Source: an archaeon | Lineage (GTDB): Archaea > Iainarchaeota > Iainarchaeia > Iainarchaeales > CSSED10-239 | Direction of reading: 5' to 3' | Assembly (NCBI GenBank): GCA_035387745.1 | Contig: DAOOON010000007.1 | Span: forward strand, 1 to 8,425 | DNA: 8,425 nt | Part shown: positions 1 through 8,425 of the stretch, piece by piece | How the letters are laid out: every line of letters begins with the position of its first letter | How positions within the stretch are numbered: position 1 is the first letter of the stretch | The notes under the pieces: generated by a model | Told to the model about the DNA's origin: nothing | What the model saw: the letters and a program-made list of their open reading frames with translations, nothing else | The model's database searches: none | Translations under genes and position numbers: made by a program

Positions 1-3
1 AAA

Positions 4-2055
4 TTATAAACTCATTAATCCTTTTTTGTTTTCAGTATTAAAATCTTTATCTGCGCCATTTAGCTTTTCTGGAATAAAAACTGAATTTCCAATCTTGTGT
101 GCTTCTATGATTGTGTTTTTAATTTCTTGAATATTAGTATTATCTGTAAAATAAATCTTTATATCAACAACGCCGTCTGTGTTTTTCTCAAAAATCGATT
201 GTAATCTTATAAAGAACTGTGGAGAGACGTCTTTTGCAAGAGGAAAATTTAATTTTATGTCTTTTGGAATAGTGGATTCTATCTCTTGTTTTGTCCAGGT
301 AGCCTTTAGATCAGAAACATTTACTAAAAGCTCCTTGTTTATTTTTTCAAACTTGTGGCCATTAATCCAAATTATTGGCTTGTAATTAATTATTGCATCA
401 ACACCTAAACTGCACTCGTTAGCAATAGAATAGAAATCAGAAAAAATTATTGAAAACGTAGACGAATTTCTTAATCCGTATTTTTTAATATTATTTCTAA
501 GAGCAATCCAATCGATTTTTGGCATATTTTTTATTAGCTTTTTAGATTTTGTTAAATCTGTAGAAAATAAGGTCTTTTGAACTGGCGCTTTTTCAAAAGA
601 AAAATTAGATAACTCGTATTTGCTTTTTATAAACTTTAGAAATGGGCCTCTTTCTTTTGCAAGTTCTGTTGATTTTAATTTAGAATAATAATTAATATAG
701 TCAGATAAAGAATATGCAAAATTAATTGCATCATCACTGTTATATGGGATATCTAACTTTGTTAAGAGGGTATAAAAACCAGTAATTGAAAGAAAAATGG
801 ATCTGGTTTCTTTAAGCTCTTGTAAGTATTTTTCATTTATTGTTTTTGAAACATCAATTGTATTGTCTAAAAATTCAATAGTATCCCAAATAACGTTTTT
901 TAATTTTAGCCAATCAAAGGTCTTTGTATTGCCTAAAAAATTAACAAATTTAGAAACATCAATAACCCCGCTAACAAAAGACGCATTTTCAAAAACCGGT
1001 TGCATACCAACTGGCGAAATTGTGAATTTTTTATAGTCTTCTAAAAATGGGTTTTTCTTATTAATTGTATCAACAAAAATAAGGCTTATTTTTTCTCCAG
1101 TAATTATCTTAGACGAAATCAAATCAAGTAGTGCTAATGAAGAAATCTTTTGCTTCTTTTCAGAATTTATATCTATTGTGTAATCTGTGTTTTCTGAAAC
1201 TGCAGTCATAAACCTGTCAGGGATTAATATTGCAAAATTATCCTCGTTTTGCGTTGCTGAATAGTTTAAGAACGAAACAATGTCAGGGTGTTCTATAGAT
1301 ATATAGTATAAATTATTAGAAGAATTAATATTATAACCAACCATTGACTTTGCAGAAACAAACAAATCAATAATTCTTATTGGTCCACATGCGTTTCTAT
1401 TGATAGACTTTACTTTCTCTTTTTCTGAGCGTATTTTACTTAAGTCAATAGAAATAGAAGAGCCGTATTTCTGAACAATGCTTGATTGAGAAAGAGTATC
1501 AAAAATACTCTCAATTGTGTCATCAATTTGAAAAGAATAACCAGAAAGCACTTGCTGATTTAAAGTGATATCTCGCAAAAATGTAGAACTTGGATAGAAA
1601 ACGCCTTCTCTAATATATTCAAAAATCTTTTTGTTTGTTTTTTCGTGTTGATTGTTTTGTAACTTATTTAGGTGGGCTTGAATATTTAGTAATTTTGTTG
1701 GCAGGCTATCTGTTTCTTGAATATTTAAAATTAGTTTTAAAATTAGTTCTTTTATTTCGCTATCAGAAGGAATTGTATCTGGCGTTGCTTTTTTAAAAAT
1801 ATAAGCCTGCAAAAGATCTGCTTGATTCTCTTGATGAAGAATTTCTTTTATTATTTCGTCAAGCTTTTCAAAAGGGATTTCTTTTGAATACTTTGCATTT
1901 ACTTTATCAAATATTAAAAATGCTAACTTCTCTGCTAAATTTAAATTAGGATCCCCATAGTTACACATGGTCTCAAATAACATTATTGCAATTTTTTCTT
2001 TAGAAAACTCCTCTGTTTCTCCATTCTTTTGTATCACTGTGTTAACAAAAACCAT
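4..2055 (-). CDS. ATP-cone + class I/II-type ribonucleotide reductase-fold protein (NrdJ/NrdA-like) with degenerate catalytic motifs; probable non-catalytic paralogue
   Basis: Intact 683-aa ORF with ATG at 2053-2055, starting 12 nt after the nrdG stop and preceded by a GTGA Shine-Dalgarno-like element 6 nt upstream. The N-terminus (VIQKNGETEEFSKEKI ... LLQAYIFKK) resembles an ATP-cone (consensus V-x-K-R-D-G..F..KI). The body keeps RNR large-subunit landmarks in the correct order: IEHPDIV (HPDI), DVSKFV..FDW, EFLDNTIDV (FLDNVID), DIPYNSDDA (GIPYDSEEA), ELAKERGPF and YGLRNS. This is a by-eye alignment to remembered consensus motifs, not a computed search. Confidence 0.8.
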   Translation of the reverse strand: MVFVNTVIQKNGETEEFSKEKIAIMLFETMCNYGDPNLNLAEKLAFLIFDKVNAKYSKEIPFEKLDEIIKEILHQENQADLLQAYIFKKATPDTIPSDSEIKELILKLILNIQETDSLPTKLLNIQAHLNKLQNNQHEKTNKKIFEYIREGVFYPSSTFLRDITLNQQVLSGYSFQIDDTIESIFDTLSQSSIVQKYGSSISIDLSKIRSEKEKVKSINRNACGPIRIIDLFVSAKSMVGYNINSSNNLYYISIEHPDIVSFLNYSATQNEDNFAILIPDRFMTAVSENTDYTIDINSEKKQKISSLALLDLISSKIITGEKISLIFVDTINKKNPFLEDYKKFTISPVGMQPVFENASFVSGVIDVSKFVNFLGNTKTFDWLKLKNVIWDTIEFLDNTIDVSKTINEKYLQELKETRSIFLSITGFYTLLTKLDIPYNSDDAINFAYSLSDYINYYSKLKSTELAKERGPFLKFIKSKYELSNFSFEKAPVQKTLFSTDLTKSKKLIKNMPKIDWIALRNNIKKYGLRNSSTFSIIFSDFYSIANECSLGVDAIINYKPIIWINGHKFEKINKELLVNVSDLKATWTKQEIESTIPKDIKLNFPLAKDVSPQFFIRLQSIFEKNTDGVVDIKIYFTDNTNIQEIKNTIIEAHKIGNSVFIPEKLNGADKDFNTENKKGLMSL

Positions 2056-2067
2056 ATTTTTTCACTT

Positions 2068-2733
2068 TTATCTTAATATATAATCTTTAGAGTCCTTTAA
2101 GAGTTGAGAATATATTGTTTTGTAATCTTTATATTCTTTTATTGTGTTGGTATTCATGAAATCTTGGACAAATATTTTTTGCCCTCTAGAAAAATCAATT
2201 ATTTTATTAAAACTTTCTATACTTAGCTCTGGATGCGTGGTTATTCTAAATTCGTGTGGAATATTTGAATCTTTGATTAGCTCAAATGAAAGTTTTATAT
2301 TTTCTGTTGGAACGTTTGTATATTTATTATAATTTTCAAAAACGTCTTTTAGGTCCATTGCAATATAATCTACAAGATTATTCTCAATTGTTTTTTTTAA
2401 CATCTCTGGATTAGAGCCATTAGAGTCTAGTTTTATTAGATAGCCTCTATCTTTTATTTGCTTTATAAATTTTATAAGATCATCACCAAAAATTGTTGGC
2501 TCGCCGCCCGTTATAACTACTGCATCTATTAGGCCTTTTCGCGCGTCCAAGAAATCCTGTATTTCTTTTTCAGAGAGGTCTGGTTTTGTGTCTAATAGCT
2601 CAGGCAGCACCAGTTGTTTATTATAACAAAAACCACAAAAAAAATTACAGCCTTTTAGAAAAATTACACAAGATATTTTGTCAGGATAGTCTATTGTACT
2701 AAATTTTTCTATAGCCCCTATTCTTAAAGACAA
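2068..2733 (-). CDS. nrdG: Anaerobic ribonucleoside-triphosphate reductase activating protein (radical SAM)
   Basis: 221-aa ORF. It has the radical-SAM CX3CX2C cluster motif (GCNFFCGFCYN) right after an FSTIDYPDKISCVIFLKGC N-terminus typical of archaeal-type NrdG, plus a GGEPT SAM-binding motif. It lies 12 nt downstream of the glycyl-radical mini-ORF. The start is TTG (2731-2733), with GTGA 6 nt upstream, the same spacing as the next gene. Confidence 0.9.
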   Translation of the reverse strand: MSLRIGAIEKFSTIDYPDKISCVIFLKGCNFFCGFCYNKQLVLPELLDTKPDLSEKEIQDFLDARKGLIDAVVITGGEPTIFGDDLIKFIKQIKDRGYLIKLDSNGSNPEMLKKTIENNLVDYIAMDLKDVFENYNKYTNVPTENIKLSFELIKDSNIPHEFRITTHPELSIESFNKIIDFSRGQKIFVQDFMNTNTIKEYKDYKTIYSQLLKDSKDYILR

Positions 2734-2745
2734 TATTTTTCACAT

Positions 2746-2892
2746 TTATTTTTTTTCAGGAACAGAAAACAATTTTCTATCTTGAAATTCTGATTGTTTA
2801 CCATAGTTCCATGCGTCTACTCTTCTAACATATCCTACGACTCTAGAATATATTTCGCATTTCTGTCTTTTAGACTCTAATTCACTACTCAT
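2746..2892 (-). CDS. 48-aa glycyl-radical domain peptide (detached C-terminal module of NrdD)
   Basis: Hand translation of the minus strand from ATG 2890-2892 to TAA 2746-2748 gives MSSELESKRQKCEIYSRVVGYVRRVDAWNYGKQSEFQDRKLFSVPEKK. It contains the SR-V-x-G-Y ... W-N-x-G-K-x-x-E-F-x-x-R signature of the NrdD C-terminus (glycyl radical site in RVVGY). The ATG overlaps the nrdD TGA (ATGA), and GGAGG (2900-2904) lies 7 nt upstream. The ORF is below the ORF-track length cutoff. Confidence 0.7.
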   Translation of the reverse strand: MSSELESKRQKCEIYSRVVGYVRRVDAWNYGKQSEFQDRKLFSVPEKK

Positions 2893-4916
2893 TTTATTTC
2901 CTCCTTATATCCTATCTCTTCATCACAAATTGGACAAAACTCGTGTTCTCCAAAAATATATCCATGTTTTGGGCAAACTGAAAAAGTTGGTGTAAATGTA
3001 AAATATGGCAATTTGAATCTTGTTGTAATCTTTTGAATTAACAATTTTATTGCTTCTCTTGATGGTTTCTTTTCGCCAATAAAAATGTGGATCACAGTTC
3101 CTCCTGTGTATTTACATTGTAATTCATCTTGCAATTCTAAAACCTCAAAAATATCGCTAGAGTAATTTACAGGTAATTGAGAGGAGTTTGTATAATATGG
3201 TTGTGCGCCATTATTAATATAATTTTCTTCGTTTGCAACAATTATTGATGGGTATTTTTCTTTATCATAGCTTGCAAATCTATATGTTGTGCTTTCTCCT
3301 GGTGTTGCTTCTAGATTATAAAGATTTCCTGTTTCTTCTTGATATTTTAAAATTCTATCTCGCATAAAGTCCATTACTTTAATTGCAAATGCTTGCCCTT
3401 TTTCTGTATATATCCCTTCTCCTAAAAAATTAACAGCAGATTCATTCAAGCCAAGTAATCCAATTGTAGAAAAGTGATTTTTCCAAAAACTATCAAATCT
3501 ATCTTTTATAGCTTTAAGATTAAATTTAGAATAAGGATATAATCCGTCATCGGTATATTTTTCCACAATTTTCCTTTTTATATCAAGTGATTTTTTTGCA
3601 AGATCCATTAAATGTGCTAATTTTTCAAAATATTCTTCTTCTGATTTAGAGAGATAACCTAATTGTGCAAGATTGATAGTTACAACGCCTATTGAACCAG
3701 TCAAAGGATTAGAACCAAATAATCCGCCGCCTCTTTTTTGTAATTCTCTGTTATCAAGTCTTAATCTACAGCACATGCTTCTTGCGTCTTCTGGTTTCAT
3801 ATCAGAATTAACGAAATTTGCAAAGTATGGTGTGCCGTATTTTATTGTTAAGTCAATTATCTTATTTGCAAGTTCTGTTGACCAATCAAAGTCTTTTGTA
3901 ACATTAATTGTTGGTATTGGAAAAGAAAACATATTTCCTATCGCATCTCCTTCATACAACACATCAAGTAAAGCCATATTAAAAATATCCATTTCTTTTT
4001 GAAAATCTCCATATGTTTTATCTTGTGATTTTCCTCCAATAATAACAGCCTGATCTTTAAAGGTGGAGGGGACTGTTAAATCAAGAGTTATATTCGAAAA
4101 TGGAGTTTGAAAACCTGTTCTTGTTGGAACATTCATATTATAAATAAATTTTTCTAGAGATGCTCTTGTTTGAGCATAATCAAGATTGTCATATCTTATA
4201 AATGGTGCAAGAAGAGTATCAAAATTACTAAATGCCTGTGCACCAGCTGATTCTCCTTGAAGAGTATATATAAAATTAACAATTTGTCCTAATGCAGTAT
4301 CTAGATGTTTTGGCGGAGATGCCACAACTTTTCCTGGGGACCCTCTAAATCCTGTTTGTAATACTGATTGGAGGTCCCAGCCAACGCAATAGGACCCTAA
4401 AGTATTAAGATCATGAATATGAAGTTGCCTTTTTTCATGTGCTTCTTTAATTTCAGGAGGGTATATTTTTTTAATCCAATAGTCAGAAATTATTTTTGTG
4501 GATAAATAATTATTTAGCCCTTGAAGCGAGTAATCCATATTACTGTTTTCTTTAACTTGCCAATCTGAAATATTAATATAGCTTTCAACAGCATTTGTGC
4601 TATCTATTAATTTAGAAAGGTTTCTAAAATCGTCGTGTTGCCTTCTATAAATTACATAGGCTTTAACTAACTTTGTAAATCCTTCTTTTATTAATATGTC
4701 TTCTATAGTGTCTTGAATATCATTTATTTTTGGTAATGTTTTTTTATTAAAGTATTCTTCTGTTAGTTTTATATCTACTTTTTTTGTTAAATAATCTGCT
4801 AAGTCAATATCTGGATTATCGATTGCATCAAGAGCCTTAAGAATAGCTAATTTAATTTTATAAATATTATATGGTATCTTTTCTTCTTTTCTATTGATTA
4901 TTTGTTTGGCAGCCAT
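2889..4916 (-). CDS. nrdD: Anaerobic ribonucleoside-triphosphate reductase (class III RNR) large polypeptide, lacking the glycyl-radical tail
   Basis: 675-aa ORF. The N-terminus is ATP-cone-like (...DIQDTIEDILIKEGFTKLVKAYVIYRRQH). Class III landmarks are present: SMCCRLRLD (CCRL region), GGGLFGSNPLTGSIGVVTINL, and a C-terminal Zn-ribbon-like CPKHG...FCPIC. The ORF stops (…CPICDEEIGYKEEIK*) before any RVxGY glycyl-radical motif. GTGA lies 7 nt upstream of the ATG. Confidence 0.93.
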   Translation of the reverse strand: MAAKQIINRKEEKIPYNIYKIKLAILKALDAIDNPDIDLADYLTKKVDIKLTEEYFNKKTLPKINDIQDTIEDILIKEGFTKLVKAYVIYRRQHDDFRNLSKLIDSTNAVESYINISDWQVKENSNMDYSLQGLNNYLSTKIISDYWIKKIYPPEIKEAHEKRQLHIHDLNTLGSYCVGWDLQSVLQTGFRGSPGKVVASPPKHLDTALGQIVNFIYTLQGESAGAQAFSNFDTLLAPFIRYDNLDYAQTRASLEKFIYNMNVPTRTGFQTPFSNITLDLTVPSTFKDQAVIIGGKSQDKTYGDFQKEMDIFNMALLDVLYEGDAIGNMFSFPIPTINVTKDFDWSTELANKIIDLTIKYGTPYFANFVNSDMKPEDARSMCCRLRLDNRELQKRGGGLFGSNPLTGSIGVVTINLAQLGYLSKSEEEYFEKLAHLMDLAKKSLDIKRKIVEKYTDDGLYPYSKFNLKAIKDRFDSFWKNHFSTIGLLGLNESAVNFLGEGIYTEKGQAFAIKVMDFMRDRILKYQEETGNLYNLEATPGESTTYRFASYDKEKYPSIIVANEENYINNGAQPYYTNSSQLPVNYSSDIFEVLELQDELQCKYTGGTVIHIFIGEKKPSREAIKLLIQKITTRFKLPYFTFTPTFSVCPKHGYIFGEHEFCPICDEEIGYKEEIK
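2900..2904 (-). promoter_or_regulatory. Shine-Dalgarno GGAGG for the glycyl-radical mini-ORF, embedded in the 3' end of nrdD
   Basis: The minus strand reads aaGGAGGaaataaaATGagt. The core is the same as, and the spacing similar to, the GGAGG in front of the PRC-barrel gene (6164-6168). Confidence 0.55.
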
Positions 4917-5112
4917 TCATATCTCACATTTTTATTTAGAATTAAAAATAGTATATTTATAGTAGTTCATCAAGTTTATAAAGGCTATCGGTTTGTCTGA
5001 GAAACCAGTATTTATATGTGTTTTTGGTTTATTTGTGATAGCTGGCTTTATATAACAAACTATTGGCTTTGAAATATTTAGTTAAACAAATTAAGTGCTT
5101 CGGCATAATCTA

Positions 5113-5120
5113 TTTTATAA
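5113..5120 (+). promoter_or_regulatory. TATA-like box (ttttataa) upstream of the xer gene
   Basis: The box is centred about 34 nt upstream of the ATG at 5151 and no SD is present. This fits an archaeal promoter giving a very short or leaderless transcript. AT-rich DNA produces many such matches by chance. Confidence 0.3.
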
Positions 5121-5150
5121 GCATTTCCGTTCTAATTGTTTAGATAAAAT

Positions 5151-6002
5151 ATGGATGAAAAGAACATAGAAATCTTAAAAAAATTCGAAAATGAATTAAA
5201 TATTATTGGTTATAGTCAAAAAACTATAGAGACTTATTTGATATATCTAAATAAATTCTCTGAGTTTATAAAAAAAGATCTAAAAGAAGTAAACTCTGAT
5301 GATATTGTAAATTTTTTATCATATCTTAAAACTAAAAAAAATTCAGGTTCTGCAACTATGAATCTGGTGCTTTCAGCAATCAAACATTTTTATAATGAAT
5401 TTTTAAAACAAAACATTTTAATTGATATTAAATTACCAAAGAAAGCAAAGAAAATACCAATTGTTTTAACTCCAAAAGAAATTAAAGACTTGGTTGAAAA
5501 CACTAGTAATAATCGTAATAAACTGATAATTGAGTTTATGTTTTCTACTGGTGTTAGAGTTTCAGAATGTGTAAATATGAAAATATCTGATCTTAATTTT
5601 GAAGAATTTACTGGAAATGTTATTGCTGGAAAAGGGAATAAAGACAGAATAATAATTTTATCAAAAAATTGGGTTGCGGAATATAAAAAATATTTAGAAG
5701 AAAGAGAAAAAAAAGTAAAATCAGAATATCTTTTCTGTTCTGATTCTGGTAAGCCACTTTCTGTTGATACTATTCAAAAATTTTTAAAAATATCTGCAAA
5801 TAAAGCAGGAATTACAAAAAAAATTAGTCCCCATAAATTAAGACATTCTTTTGCTACAAGTCTTCTTGAAAATGATGTTAATATTAGATATATTCAACAA
5901 CTTTTAGGGCATGCTAATCTTAACACTACTCAAATATACACTAAAGTCAATACAAATAAGCTAAAAGAGATAGAAAATCCACTAGATCATATGAAAAAAT
6001 AG
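5151..6002 (+). CDS. xerA: Tyrosine recombinase, XerA/XerC/XerD family
   Basis: 283-aa ORF with an N-terminal SAM-like core-binding domain (GYSQKTIETYLIYLNKFSEF, ATMNLVLSAIKHFYNEF). The full catalytic set is visible: TGVRVSE (Arg), GKGNKDR (Lys), PHKLRHSFAT (His-x-x-Arg), LLGHANLNTTQIYTKV (His, Tyr nucleophile). Size and layout fit the archaeal XerA / bacterial XerCD type. The xerA symbol assumes an archaeal host. Confidence 0.9.
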   Translation: MDEKNIEILKKFENELNIIGYSQKTIETYLIYLNKFSEFIKKDLKEVNSDDIVNFLSYLKTKKNSGSATMNLVLSAIKHFYNEFLKQNILIDIKLPKKAKKIPIVLTPKEIKDLVENTSNNRNKLIIEFMFSTGVRVSECVNMKISDLNFEEFTGNVIAGKGNKDRIIILSKNWVAEYKKYLEEREKKVKSEYLFCSDSGKPLSVDTIQKFLKISANKAGITKKISPHKLRHSFATSLLENDVNIRYIQQLLGHANLNTTQIYTKVNTNKLKEIENPLDHMKK

Positions 6003-6176
6003 TTTTTTACCCCCTCACTTCCTGTATTAAGCTGAAATTAACTTTAAATTGCGGTTTAGAAAGCAAACTTTAAAACATTCTATTTTTACTTTTAGAAATA
6101 GTAACATATATAAATCCTTTGTATAACCTTTTAGTATACTAATAAAATATATATTTAATATTTGGAGGAATAAAAC

Positions 6177-6542
6177 ATGACAATGAGAATTTCAAAGCTA
6201 TTTGGTATGGATCTTTATGAGACTAATGCTACATACAGAGGAAAAGTTTATGATTTAGTTGTAAACTTAGAATCAGGTATTGTTGAGACAATCACGACTC
6301 AGCCATTAAAGGTTAGCTCTAAAAAAGAGGCTAAAAAGATAATGACAGAGCACAGTATTCCATATAAGAAAGTTATATCAGTTGATGATATTATTCTTAT
6401 TAACTCAGGAAATGTTCCAGTAGCTGAAAGAGAAGTTGTTAGAGAGCCAGTAGCTGAAGAACAAGACAATAGCTATGATTCTAAAATAAGAAAGAAGTAT
6501 ATTGGCTACAAGAGCAAATACTCAACAGCTGGAAGAAGATAA
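6177..6542 (+). CDS. PRC-barrel domain protein
   Basis: 121-aa ORF. The N-terminal ~80 aa (RISKLFGMDLYETNATYRGKVYDLVVNLESGIVETI ... VISVDDIILI) follow the pattern of small archaeal PRC-barrel proteins (l..l.G..Vy...G..lG.V.Dlv.d...g.i). The C-terminal tail is charged. A strong GGAGG (6164-6168) lies 8 nt upstream of the ATG. Confidence 0.72.
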   Translation: MTMRISKLFGMDLYETNATYRGKVYDLVVNLESGIVETITTQPLKVSSKKEAKKIMTEHSIPYKKVISVDDIILINSGNVPVAEREVVREPVAEEQDNSYDSKIRKKYIGYKSKYSTAGRR

Positions 6543-6587
6543 ATAATTAATTTATCTTTTATTTTCTATTTTTTATTGTTTAATTTA

Positions 6588-6604
6588 AGTCTTACTATAA
6601 GACT
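6588..6604 (+). terminator. 7-bp hairpin (agtctta-cta-taagact) after T-rich tracts downstream of the PRC-barrel gene
   Basis: A perfect 7-bp inverted repeat with a 3-nt loop lies 45 nt after the stop at 6542. It is preceded by oligo-T runs (for example T6 at 6569-6574). The stem is weak and AT-rich, so this is speculative. Confidence 0.2.
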
Positions 6605-6727
6605 AACTATCCCTTTAGTTCTTGTAATATTTATTTAATAGGAAAGCTTTATATTATGTATAATTAATCAATATACTTAAATGTAATTAATAAAAAAATA
6701 TTATTGTTATTACTATTATTTATTGTA

Positions 6728-6745
6728 ATATATATATATATATAT
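6728..6745. repeat. (AT)9 dinucleotide microsatellite
   Basis: The run atatatatatatatatat is read directly from the sequence. It lies in the 264-bp intergenic region upstream of the 6807 ORF. Confidence 0.95.
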
Positions 6746-6806
6746 TTATACATAACATAATTTATAATATAATAATACTTAATACAAGAAGTATGGGGGG
6801 GCTCAC

Positions 6807-7487
6807 ATGGATAAAATAATTAGTAATTATATAAAATATAAATTTATATTTAACAATGATATAAAACACTCTTCTTATTTATATCAAAAAATGTTTAGAT
6901 CTATATATGGTTATACTCAAAACGTTACTAAAAAAGATAAAAAAACATATTGGTATCATAGAGAAGGAGTTTTAGAGAATATTCCTTATATTAGGCCAGG
7001 AAAAAATAGCATCATAGTTCCAATTAATACAGAACACAAAATAATTAATTTTTTTAATACAGGAAAAAGTCCAACACATAATTTTAAAGAAAAAGGAGAA
7101 TGGTCTATAAATTATAATATTGATAAAATCGAAATTAATCAAGAAGATATAATTAAAACAATTGATGCATTTATTAATTCTCTAATTGTAATTTCAATAG
7201 ATGGTAAAAATACAAAAATATTTGATGAATTAAATAATATAATAATTGATAAAGAATATGCTTCAAAATTTAAGAAAGCAAATAAGGATAATCTAATATC
7301 AAAGATTAATAATATTTTAGAAATAGATTGGATATTTAAAACAAAAGAATCTTCTGAAAAAGTAAAATTATTAATTTCGTTATTTAATAAAGCAAAGGAA
7401 TCATTTAATTATTCATCAAGTAGTAATTATACAAATAAAGATAGTTTAACTTCTGAATCACTATTAAAAACTACTGATGAAAGCTAG
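6807..7487 (+). CDS. Hypothetical protein (orphan, 226 aa)
   Basis: Long ORF in a region that is otherwise stop-rich and about 20% GC. A G7 run (6795-6801) lies 5 nt upstream of the ATG as a possible SD. I recognise no family. The Lys/Asn/Ile-rich composition fits the local AT bias. Confidence 0.6.
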   Translation: MDKIISNYIKYKFIFNNDIKHSSYLYQKMFRSIYGYTQNVTKKDKKTYWYHREGVLENIPYIRPGKNSIIVPINTEHKIINFFNTGKSPTHNFKEKGEWSINYNIDKIEINQEDIIKTIDAFINSLIVISIDGKNTKIFDELNNIIIDKEYASKFKKANKDNLISKINNILEIDWIFKTKESSEKVKLLISLFNKAKESFNYSSSSNYTNKDSLTSESLLKTTDES

Positions 7488-7490
7488 TAA

Positions 7491-8027
7491 TTATTCTTTT
7501 TCTATTATTATAATATTCTTCTTCCAGGTTCTTTTTTTACCAGAATTATTAACTTTTATAAGGTTTATGTCTGTTAATGTTTTTATATAAGGATAAAGAC
7601 TTTTCTCGTTTTGGTATTCTACATTATATTGTAATTTTATTCTGTTCTTTAGATCTTCCATATCTATCCATTCATCATCTGGAAGACACGCAATAATATG
7701 TTCTGCTTGTGTATTTTCTCTAGCTTTAATTACATCCCAAATAGTGTTAATTTTTTTACTGCTAATTTTTGAAACATCATAGATTTTTGTGTGATTAATT
7801 TCCTTTTCATTATCTACTGTTTTTATATTTAAATTTTTTAATTCAAGTTGCTGAGTTTGCATGGAATTTGTATTTGATATTTTTTCATTTGATTGATTAT
7901 TTGAGTAATTACTGTAATTATTGTTATTACTTGCAAAAGTTTCTTGGTAATTACTATCTTTTTTATTATTTTTATTTTTTTTTAAAAGACCTAATTTAGT
8001 CAATAGTTTTTGAAATATATTGCCCAT
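7491..8027 (-). CDS. Hypothetical protein with Asn-rich N-terminus and possible C-terminal winged-helix DNA-binding domain
   Basis: 178-aa ORF convergent with 6807-7487, with only a 3-nt gap. The C-terminal ~80 aa (TIWDVIKARENTQAEHII..EWIDMEDLKNRI..EKSLYPYIKTLTDINLIKVNNSGKKRTWKK) show a helix-helix-helix-hairpin pattern reminiscent of a wHTH. This is a pattern judgement only. The N-terminal 55 aa are low complexity and are encoded by the GTAATTAC repeat, so the true start could be Met56 (ATG 7860-7862). Confidence 0.55.
   Translation of the reverse strand: MGNIFQKLLTKLGLLKKNKNNKKDSNYQETFASNNNNYSNYSNNQSNEKISNTNSMQTQQLELKNLNIKTVDNEKEINHTKIYDVSKISSKKINTIWDVIKARENTQAEHIIACLPDDEWIDMEDLKNRIKLQYNVEYQNEKSLYPYIKTLTDINLIKVNNSGKKRTWKKNIIIIEKE
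7915..7964. repeat. Intragenic copies of the same palindrome (triplet with 9-nt period plus one single copy)
   Basis: The copies are 7915-7922 GTAATTAC, 7924-7931 GTAATTAT, 7933-7940 GTTATTAC and 7957-7964 GTAATTAC. They lie within the codons for ...NNNNYSNYSNN... and ...DSNYQE... of the 7491-8027 ORF. Confidence 0.85.
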
Positions 8028-8038
8028 ATCATATTATA

Positions 8039-8117
8039 GTAATTACCGTAATTATTTTAAAGGGATTGGTAATTACAGTAATTATATAACCTCATTTTTG
8101 GTCATTACCGTAATTAC
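8039..8117. repeat. Three tandem-doublet copies of the 8-bp palindrome GTAATTAC (17-nt unit GTAATTAC-N-GTAATTAY), spaced 30 and 32 nt apart
   Basis: The three units are 8039-8055 GTAATTACCGTAATTAT, 8069-8085 GTAATTACAGTAATTAT and 8101-8117 GTCATTACCGTAATTAC. The first unit starts 12 nt upstream of the ATG of the 7491-8027 ORF and overlaps its TATA-like box. Confidence 0.9.
8053..8061 (-). promoter_or_regulatory. TATA-like box (tttaaaata on the minus strand) upstream of the 7491-8027 ORF, overlapped by the palindrome doublet
   Basis: The box is centred about 30 nt upstream of the ATG at 8027 and no SD is present. The GTAATTAC/GTAATTAT doublet at 8039-8055 lies between the box and the start codon, which is an operator-like position. 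Confidence 0.3.
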
Positions 8118-8204
8118 TATATTTAGCTTTTTGTTACTAAAAAATCAGCAAATTAGTTATGTATAATTATCTAAAAAAACACCTAAAAAATAAAGGTTTT
8201 TACT

Positions 8205-8240
8205 GTAATTACCAAAAAATCTAGCGTAATTACCAAAAAA
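8205..8240. repeat. Two perfect 15-nt direct repeats GTAATTACCAAAAAA, 21 nt apart
   Basis: The copies at 8205-8219 and 8226-8240 are identical. Each is the GTAATTAC palindrome followed by C plus an A6 tract. Confidence 0.9.
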
Positions 8241-8425
8241 ATAAGCAATTTTAGTGTTATTTATATAAAAATAAAGATTATTTTTAGTTATTTTTTAAAA
8301 AATAGGTTAATTTGGCCCATTATTCTAAATTAAGGCCATTAAATGTTTTTTTAAATAATATTTAGAGATTTATTTAAGTTGTTAATCTTGTCCAAGATTT
8401 AGTGATTTTTAGCTTAAAAATTAGA

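Follow-up and report, generated by a model that had tools for sequence, protein, structure and literature searches.

To our knowledge, the barrel and the glycine loop sit on a single polypeptide in every characterised NrdD, the anaerobic ribonucleotide reductase (RNR) of class III, and all glycyl radical enzymes characterised to date have the radical glycine within their catalytic chain. It is at this glycine that oxygen cuts glycyl-radical proteins, and the small protein GrcA (YfiD) is an optional helper that rescues oxygen-cleaved pyruvate formate-lyase (PFL), an enzyme with a glycine of its own. Divided RNR chains occur as well, as in phage Aeh1, whose NrdA was split by a homing endonuclease. 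In Pseudomonas aeruginosa, the class II RNR is split into NrdJa and NrdJb (PMC4520616, PMC9669993), and a June 2026 review names formate lyases as the only enzymes with known glycyl-radical spare parts (PMC13450708). [quoted passage not shown] Here we analysed an archaeal stretch of 8,425 nt (contig DAOOON010000007.1, positions 1 to 8,425, assembly GCA_035387745.1; hereafter the window), in which this chain is divided between two adjacent genes, nrdD-L and nrdD-S. They very probably encode a real two-gene class III RNR, composed of a catalytic body and a separate radical-bearing peptide.

The product of nrdD-L matched positions 1-529 of the 562 positions of Pfam NRDD with 588 bits, in addition to ATP-cone, and positions 3-651 of the 684 positions of NCBIfam NF006126 with 988 bits (cutoff 548); this T. 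maritima-type model was the best family match. The protein comprises the ATP-cone, the alpha/beta barrel, the Cys-Cys finger loop, whose SMCCRL (residues 380-385) aligned to ASCCRL of T. maritima NrdD, and a complete Zn ribbon, the putative CPKH-x9-CPIC element assigned by motif comparison, whereas the glycine loop is missing. An earlier note on this DNA, made from the sequence alone, had claimed that the open reading frame (ORF) ends after the Zn ribbon and lacks RVxGY. This is indeed the case: the protein stops 11 residues past the ribbon (...CPKHGYIFGEHEFCPICDEEIGYKEEIK-TGA), and a scan of its 675-aa sequence found no R[VI]xG[YF] glycyl-radical motif. When 65 homologues, mostly split-type large subunits, were aligned, C382 and C383 as well as the Zn ligands C648, H651, C661 and C664 were invariant, which indicates that the truncated large subunits are under selection as enzymes. 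Among the 120 best large-subunit clusters, 111 lacked the glycine loop and ended 4-90 residues after CPxC, most of them with a tail starting in a D[AE]E[IM]GY-type motif, and the other 9 were fused; in this subfamily, the split form is the rule.

The loop is found instead in nrdD-S (MSSELESKRQKCEIYSRVVGYVRRVDAWNYGKQSEFQDRKLFSVPEKK), the minus-strand ORF of 48 aa with SRVVGY that the note had rightly taken for the NrdD C-terminal module. It matched positions 531-562 of Pfam NRDD, i.e., the last ~32 positions, above the gathering score (E = 2.7e-9, 36.7 bits, cutoff 26.2), and positions 649-683 of NF006126. The two products abut exactly in profile coordinates and together span the whole NrdD profile. 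Scans of nrdD-S against Pfam and NCBIfam gave no match besides NrdD models, and Gly_radical, which represents the PFL C-terminus, was not matched. In a profile of the small peptides, Gly20 aligned to Gly621, the radical glycine of T. maritima NrdD (PMC4493059). Because the large subunit has the entire Zn ribbon, the detached piece consists of the glycine loop and the C-terminal tail only. Modelled alone with AlphaFold2 (AF2), nrdD-S formed a beta hairpin of two strands (15-18 and 21-24) that has Gly20 at the tip and leads into a short helix; at a mean predicted local distance difference test score (pLDDT) of 68, this model fits a glycine loop and constitutes weak evidence.

A search with the peptide recovered 52 standalone homologues, all 42-76 aa long and down to ~60% identity, including proteins of metagenome-assembled genomes (MAGs) labelled 'archaeon' and of Parcubacteria. 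When 1.84 billion representative proteins were searched with a profile, 5059 matched at E <= 1e-3, and the best 150 of these, taken as 50% identity clusters, were all between 45 and 149 aa; hundreds of diverged standalone nrdD-S homologues exist. In an alignment of 36 small peptides, C12, S16, R17, V18, V19, G20, W28, G31, K32, E35 and R39 were invariant, while N-terminal leaders and C-terminal tails varied. Over a 31-codon core of 33 sequences (the window and the 32 loci with a separate ORF described below), mean pS, the proportion of synonymous differences, was 0.93 (saturated) and mean pN, its nonsynonymous counterpart, 0.20; against the closest relatives, pN/pS was 0.06-0.10. nrdD-S is thus under strong purifying selection, which excludes pseudogene decay. 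The peptide aligns to the NrdD C-terminus and its ORF is conserved in relatives, so that the domain assignment of the note stands.

Several observations on the small proteins may be added. The idea that Cys12 serves as a fourth, subunit-bridging Zn ligand was rejected, since this residue is Thr or Ala in some lineages and the Cys/His/Cys/Cys ligands of the T. maritima type are all on the large subunit. In three loci of Bipolaricaulota/Acetothermia (L068, L075, L079) and one of Thermotogae (L089), the small subunit has a long conserved leader (..YREDEQGNLVLEDGTVIPE..) with Ala in place of the Cys before EVYSR, and the small ORF overlaps the large one by 17-104 nt in the +1 frame, with uncertain start codons. 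A phage origin of nrdD-S was likewise dismissed: phage sequences gave no more than three weak matches, of which two fall under genes annotated as anaerobic ribonucleoside triphosphate reductase and one is in an unannotated record.

The two genes of the window meet at AAGGAGGAAATAAAATGAGT. What the note had read from this junction was borne out throughout: the ATGA overlap, the GGAGG 7 nt upstream, the in-frame TAA five codons 5' of the nrdD-S ATG and the sequence ATA-AAA-TGA. An ATGA with an internal Shine-Dalgarno (SD) sequence is the usual signature of translational coupling. The junction was identical in 18 of 18 fetched contigs, which come from separate samples and assemblies (NCBI MAGs, ENA, JGI, Logan) and thereby exclude an assembly error, and the index of the assembly collection lists the exact 48-aa protein in 45 blocks. 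From CPIC to the Cys of CEIYSR, the concatenated pair has 22 residues, made up of an 11-residue tail and an 11-residue leader, compared with 3-8 in fused relatives, which read CPxC-x(3-8)-CEVYSRVVGY. The expectation that about one residue would be missing at the joint was therefore wrong.

Other ways of joining the two products at this site were considered and rejected. With read-through or reassignment of the TGA, translation would gain four codons before a TAG in the wrong frame ends it. As a stop codon, TGA is used in the window by nrdD-L alone, and reading through it does not reach the glycine loop. In the Logan assemblies L008-L010 and L099, the gene calls extended across the nrdD-L TGA and placed the start of nrdG at an ATG followed by TGA; the gene caller evidently used a TGA-sense code. 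The halves of a split intein measure ~100 aa and ~35 aa; the 11 extra residues on each side of the break are too short for trans-splicing.

For a comparison across relatives, one genome per species was scanned with the peptide alignment, 80 loci were fetched, and the ends and starts of the ORFs were located. The glycine-loop ORF was separate in 32 loci and fused in 37. About 30 of the 32 are true splits, the two others (L058 and L086) having a fused NrdD plus an extra small ORF. Relative to the large gene, the small gene stood in frame 0 in 10 loci, in +1 in 12 and in +2 in 10, and junctions ranged from overlaps to spacers of 117 nt. An SD-like motif preceded the small gene in 19 of the 32 loci; the constant element was the small gene's own start codon. 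Variation begins among close relatives. The ATGA is kept in variant P0002 (L099-101), whose small peptide is 96% identical to that of the window. At 85% identity (L102/103), an in-frame TAA is followed by one codon and then ATG; at 83% (L105/106), there is an 8-nt overlap, ATGAATGA, in a different frame, and L020 (79%) also has an 8-nt overlap in the same frame as L105/106; spacers of 51 nt (L019, 83%) and 44 nt (L021, 80%) contain stops. Junctions that vary in this way follow no common rule of frameshifting or read-through. As to whether relatives keep the junction, which the note had proposed to check, the split is retained and an SD-like motif is present in the fraction given above, while the ATGA overlap is kept in the 96% variant and replaced by other junctions in the relatives at 79-85%.

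In two loci, L060 from a MAG of Bacillota and L080 from one of Halanaerobiales, the genes follow each other as nrdD-L, nrdG, nrdD-S; here, the small gene lies 721 and 876 nt, respectively, 3' of the stop of the large gene and has a strong SD. The joint of L105/L106 carries a run of eight A (GAGAAAAAAAATGAATGA), at which the loss of one A by transcriptional slippage would fuse the frames; this run may be a chance product of Lys-rich tails in an AT-rich genome, and such slippage is not required to account for the split.

A bootstrapped neighbour-joining tree was built from large-subunit residues 390-660 (200 replicates). The split L027 (Thermoplasmatales) was nested within five fused Thermoplasmatota sequences (bootstrap 200/200); its identity of 84% to a fused sister indicates an independent fission. 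Conversely, the fused L033 (Nanoarchaeota) was nested among split sequences (bootstrap 199/200), and its long linker DKENNYKEGDAESALKRTK reads as tail plus leader. The linker DAEIGYTNIHKLRERGQEVDYDMLRRLEKKRQR of P0248, another fused form, can be read in the same way. Both look like re-fusions. Fission and re-fusion recur at one and the same joint, a hotspot, and the split arrangement is usual in many ultra-small archaea and bacteria (DPANN and the candidate phyla radiation (CPR)/Patescibacteria). Split-type loci with AT-rich junctions and spacers were also present in MAGs labelled 'uncultured Gammaproteobacteria' (L035, L039, L061, L062, L078). Their NrdD clusters with CPR, DPANN and Bacillota-type sequences, and the labels may result from mis-binning.

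Gene structure, conservation, purifying selection on both genes and the lack of a conserved recoding geometry were all observed, and this comparative evidence strongly supports the two-polypeptide class III RNR with an obligate peptide, one of three explanations offered by the note. The other two fared worse. A programmed -1 frameshift at A-AAA-TGA, stimulated by the GGAGG and by the stop codon in the A site, would yield a fused, functional NrdD of 723 residues with the trans-frame junction peptide ...EEIKMSSELESK... (...EEIKMSSE...). The local sequence does allow tRNA-Lys to slip back by one base, with ATG as the next codon, the GGAGG is placed 7 nt 5' of that ATG, and the ATGA persists in P0002; yet the geometry is not conserved in relatives of 79-85% identity, which have the frame-0 TAA, the +1 frame or the stop-rich spacers of 44-51 nt. 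All three relative frames occur, nrdG stands between the genes in two loci, and a start codon of its own is found in every small ORF, behind an SD-like motif in 19 of 32 loci. Moreover, the RNA fold downstream is weak (z = -1.9; 8 of 200 shuffles fold as well), with the main hairpin ~35 nt away, and the ATGA with its internal SD is an ordinary coupling signature. We therefore consider frameshifting very unlikely as the basis of this locus. That nrdD is a pseudogene, made so by an error of sequencing or assembly at the four A or by a mutation that inactivated it recently, is less probable still and practically negligible. One extra A would fuse both frames, but an A4 run is not error-prone in sequencing, the junction recurs unchanged in contigs from four sources, and the standalone homologues are numerous and diverged. 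At the joint, in addition, the concatenated pair exceeds fused homologues by ~14-19 residues, which no one-base lesion explains, both parts are under purifying selection with invariant catalytic residues, and split forms outnumber fused ones in the subfamily.

The small protein could also be an optional spare part of the GrcA type, the large subunit obtaining its radical otherwise or having a role other than that of an RNR. True spare-part versions seem to exist, judging from L058 and L086, in which a full-length fused NrdD is accompanied by a further, standalone protein that has a glycine loop and a Zn ribbon of its own, and in the window a second RNR is encoded next door. Against this stands that the large subunit of the window has no glycine loop, although it keeps the thiyl-radical Cys pair and the Zn ribbon, that the window contains no further glycine-loop ORF, and that nrdG is retained in synteny at every related locus with a large-subunit match that is not cut off downstream. 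An optional role consequently appears highly improbable for the peptide of the window, which would be obligate, as its large subunit never has a glycine loop.

For the two-gene enzyme we propose the following mechanism. nrdD-S would be translated from its own ATG, which overlaps the nrdD-L TGA behind the GGAGG, and translation would probably be coupled, giving roughly one peptide per large subunit. The 48-residue peptide would bind the large subunit non-covalently, with its hairpin loop entering the barrel and Gly20 facing C382/C383. NrdG would then abstract a hydrogen from Gly20, and the radical would pass to C382/C383, with nucleotide reduction following as in single-chain NrdD. Non-covalent docking of the loop is made plausible by cryo-electron microscopy of Prevotella copri NrdD, in which high mobility extends to the entire glycyl-radical domain, and this domain can lose its order with the core still intact (PMC11226230). 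In an AF2 model of the concatenated pair, the barrel was confident and the top PDB matches were all NrdD (probability 1.0, TM-score 0.55-0.73). A speculative advantage of the arrangement is that oxygen damage would cost a replaceable 5.8-kDa peptide rather than the 77-kDa enzyme. More tentatively, and with somewhat less than an even chance of being right, we suggest that in a large NrdD clade, dominant in DPANN archaea and CPR/Patescibacteria, the glycyl radical is carried by an exchangeable subunit of ~50 residues, and that the large subunit is re-armed after oxygen cleavage. NrdG would activate the peptide either free or docked, and the peptide would act as a consumable protein cofactor in a constitutive, GrcA-like repair.

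Some points weigh against the two-gene reading. That the two products assemble in trans, that the peptide is the site of activation and that it is exchanged once damaged are steps that we infer. In the AF2 model of the pair, residues 674-723 had pLDDT below 50 and docking was not predicted, but only five alignment rows covered this region, too few to make this a negative result. Among the 80 loci, no cultured organism has the split, all split examples being MAGs or contigs. A second RNR gene (4..2055) lies directly downstream, and NrdD activity may therefore not be essential in this organism. Finally, low-level -1 slippage at A-AAA-TGA may occur in the lineage of the window, although it is not needed as an explanation.

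In the full text of open-access papers and preprints, we found no description of a split NrdD, and a two-subunit class III RNR is apparently undescribed; curators of the RNR database may already be aware of it. If the reading is right, an obligate radical peptide of 5.8 kDa provides a natural two-piece system for studying how the glycine loop exits and re-enters the barrel, and a two-piece RNR also bears on the recognition of the loop by the activase and on repair by subunit swap. There is a practical side, too. In current annotation, the large genes look truncated and the small ones are labelled as fragmentary NrdD (proteins of 47-49 aa carry the database label 'anaerobic ribonucleoside-triphosphate reductase'), and metabolic reconstructions of DPANN and CPR may in consequence score NrdD as broken. 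A dedicated family model of the small subunit would correct the annotation.

The window, which is ENA ERZ761564 NODE_10382, has a G+C content of 27%, and an archaeal host is indicated by genes for TFIIE-alpha and Trm56 on longer matching contigs. Its four minus-strand genes are arranged head to tail in the order nrdD-L, nrdD-S, nrdG and class II-like RNR (Table 1); the first three presumably form one operon. The nrdG product scored 174 bits on NCBIfam TIGR02495 NrdG2 (cutoff 131) and also matched Pfam Radical_SAM. The class II-like RNR, directly 3' of nrdG, has an ATP-cone and a class I/II barrel domain; with 217 bits on NCBIfam NrdJ it remains far below the cutoff of 961, and it is syntenic in the relatives L102 and L105. 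Divergent from nrdD are genes for a tyrosine recombinase and a PRC-barrel protein, which are kept in all long contigs of the window's species.

Table 1. Features of the 8,425-nt window.
Feature	Position	Strand	Description
nrdD-L	4916..2889	minus	675 aa, 77 kDa; class III RNR large subunit; Pfam NRDD and ATP-cone, NF006126
Finger-loop Cys pair codons C382-C383 (SMCCRL)	3768..3773	minus	presumed thiyl radical site
Zn ribbon CPKH-x9-CPIC (putative), residues 648-664	2925..2975	minus	wholly within nrdD-L
nrdD-L C-terminal tail DEEIGYKEEIK	2892..2924	minus	without counterpart in fused NrdD
SD-like GGAGG	2904..2900	minus	7 nt 5' of nrdD-S ATG, inside last nrdD-L codons; read from sequence
ATGA overlap	2892..2889	minus	nrdD-L stop and nrdD-S start share TG
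nrdD-S	2892..2746	minus	48 aa, 5.8 kDa, isoelectric point 9.5; 11-residue leader, glycine-radical loop and C-terminal tail
SRVVGY motif, nrdD-S residues 16-21	2830..2847	minus	Gly20 codon 2835..2833, predicted glycyl-radical site
nrdG	2733..2068	minus	221 aa, radical-SAM activase; 12 nt 3' of nrdD-S
Divergent class II-like RNR	2055..4	minus	683 aa
Tyrosine recombinase	5151-6002	plus	XerC/D-type
PRC-barrel protein	6177-6542	plus	

Many nrdD-L genes elsewhere carry in-frame insertions of ~1 kb at sites equivalent to residues 270/271 or 382/383, the latter site falling within the catalytic Cys pair. These insertions, probably inteins, were seen in L019, L021, L033, L037, L044, L054, L055 and L062 and in the proteins P0203-P0219 (~995 aa). 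Their carriers include the closest relatives of the window, whose own gene has none.

The two loci with a fused NrdD and an additional glycine-loop protein represent a different arrangement. In a contig of Patescibacteria (L058, JBBTUK010000030.1, 3139-3410) and one of Moranbacteria (L086, PEVT01000031.1, 4164-4440), an extra ORF of ~90 aa precedes nrdG; its product has its own CxxC...CxxC Zn ribbon and a glycine loop, and ends in CC. The joint of the fused NrdD reads CPKC-VVEQK-TEIYSRVVGY. Similar longer standalone proteins were present among the representatives (P0148, P0152, P0193). From its sequence, the extra ORF looks like a true GrcA-style spare part of an RNR and, if so, these proteins would be the first of their kind for an RNR.

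Compared with known systems, the pair of the window shares with single-chain NrdD of the T. maritima/N. bacilliformis type (NF006126; PDB 4U3E, 4COI) the ATP-cone, the barrel, the finger loop, the Cys/His/Cys/Cys Zn ribbon, the RVVGY loop and the adjacent NrdG2-type activase. It differs in that the chain is broken between Zn ribbon and glycine loop, which puts the predicted radical site on a 5.8-kDa protein, and in that both new ends are extended, by the tail on one side and the leader on the other. The analogy with GrcA/YfiD drawn by the note is sound in so far as nrdD-S is a separately encoded glycine-loop piece, a small homologue of the C-terminal part that holds the radical glycine in a glycyl radical enzyme, and presumably shares the activase and acts by docking into the large enzyme. 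Unlike in the case of GrcA, the large subunit is without a glycine loop, and the enzyme family is RNR, not formate lyase. With NrdJa/NrdJb and Aeh1 NrdA, the locus has in common that an RNR catalytic chain is distributed over two adjacent genes whose products reassemble, which for the window is predicted from the genes alone. However, those systems belong to other RNR classes and are broken at other points, and in them the detached piece is a C-terminal Zn finger with redox cysteines or a part of the barrel, whereas here it would carry the radical cofactor itself.

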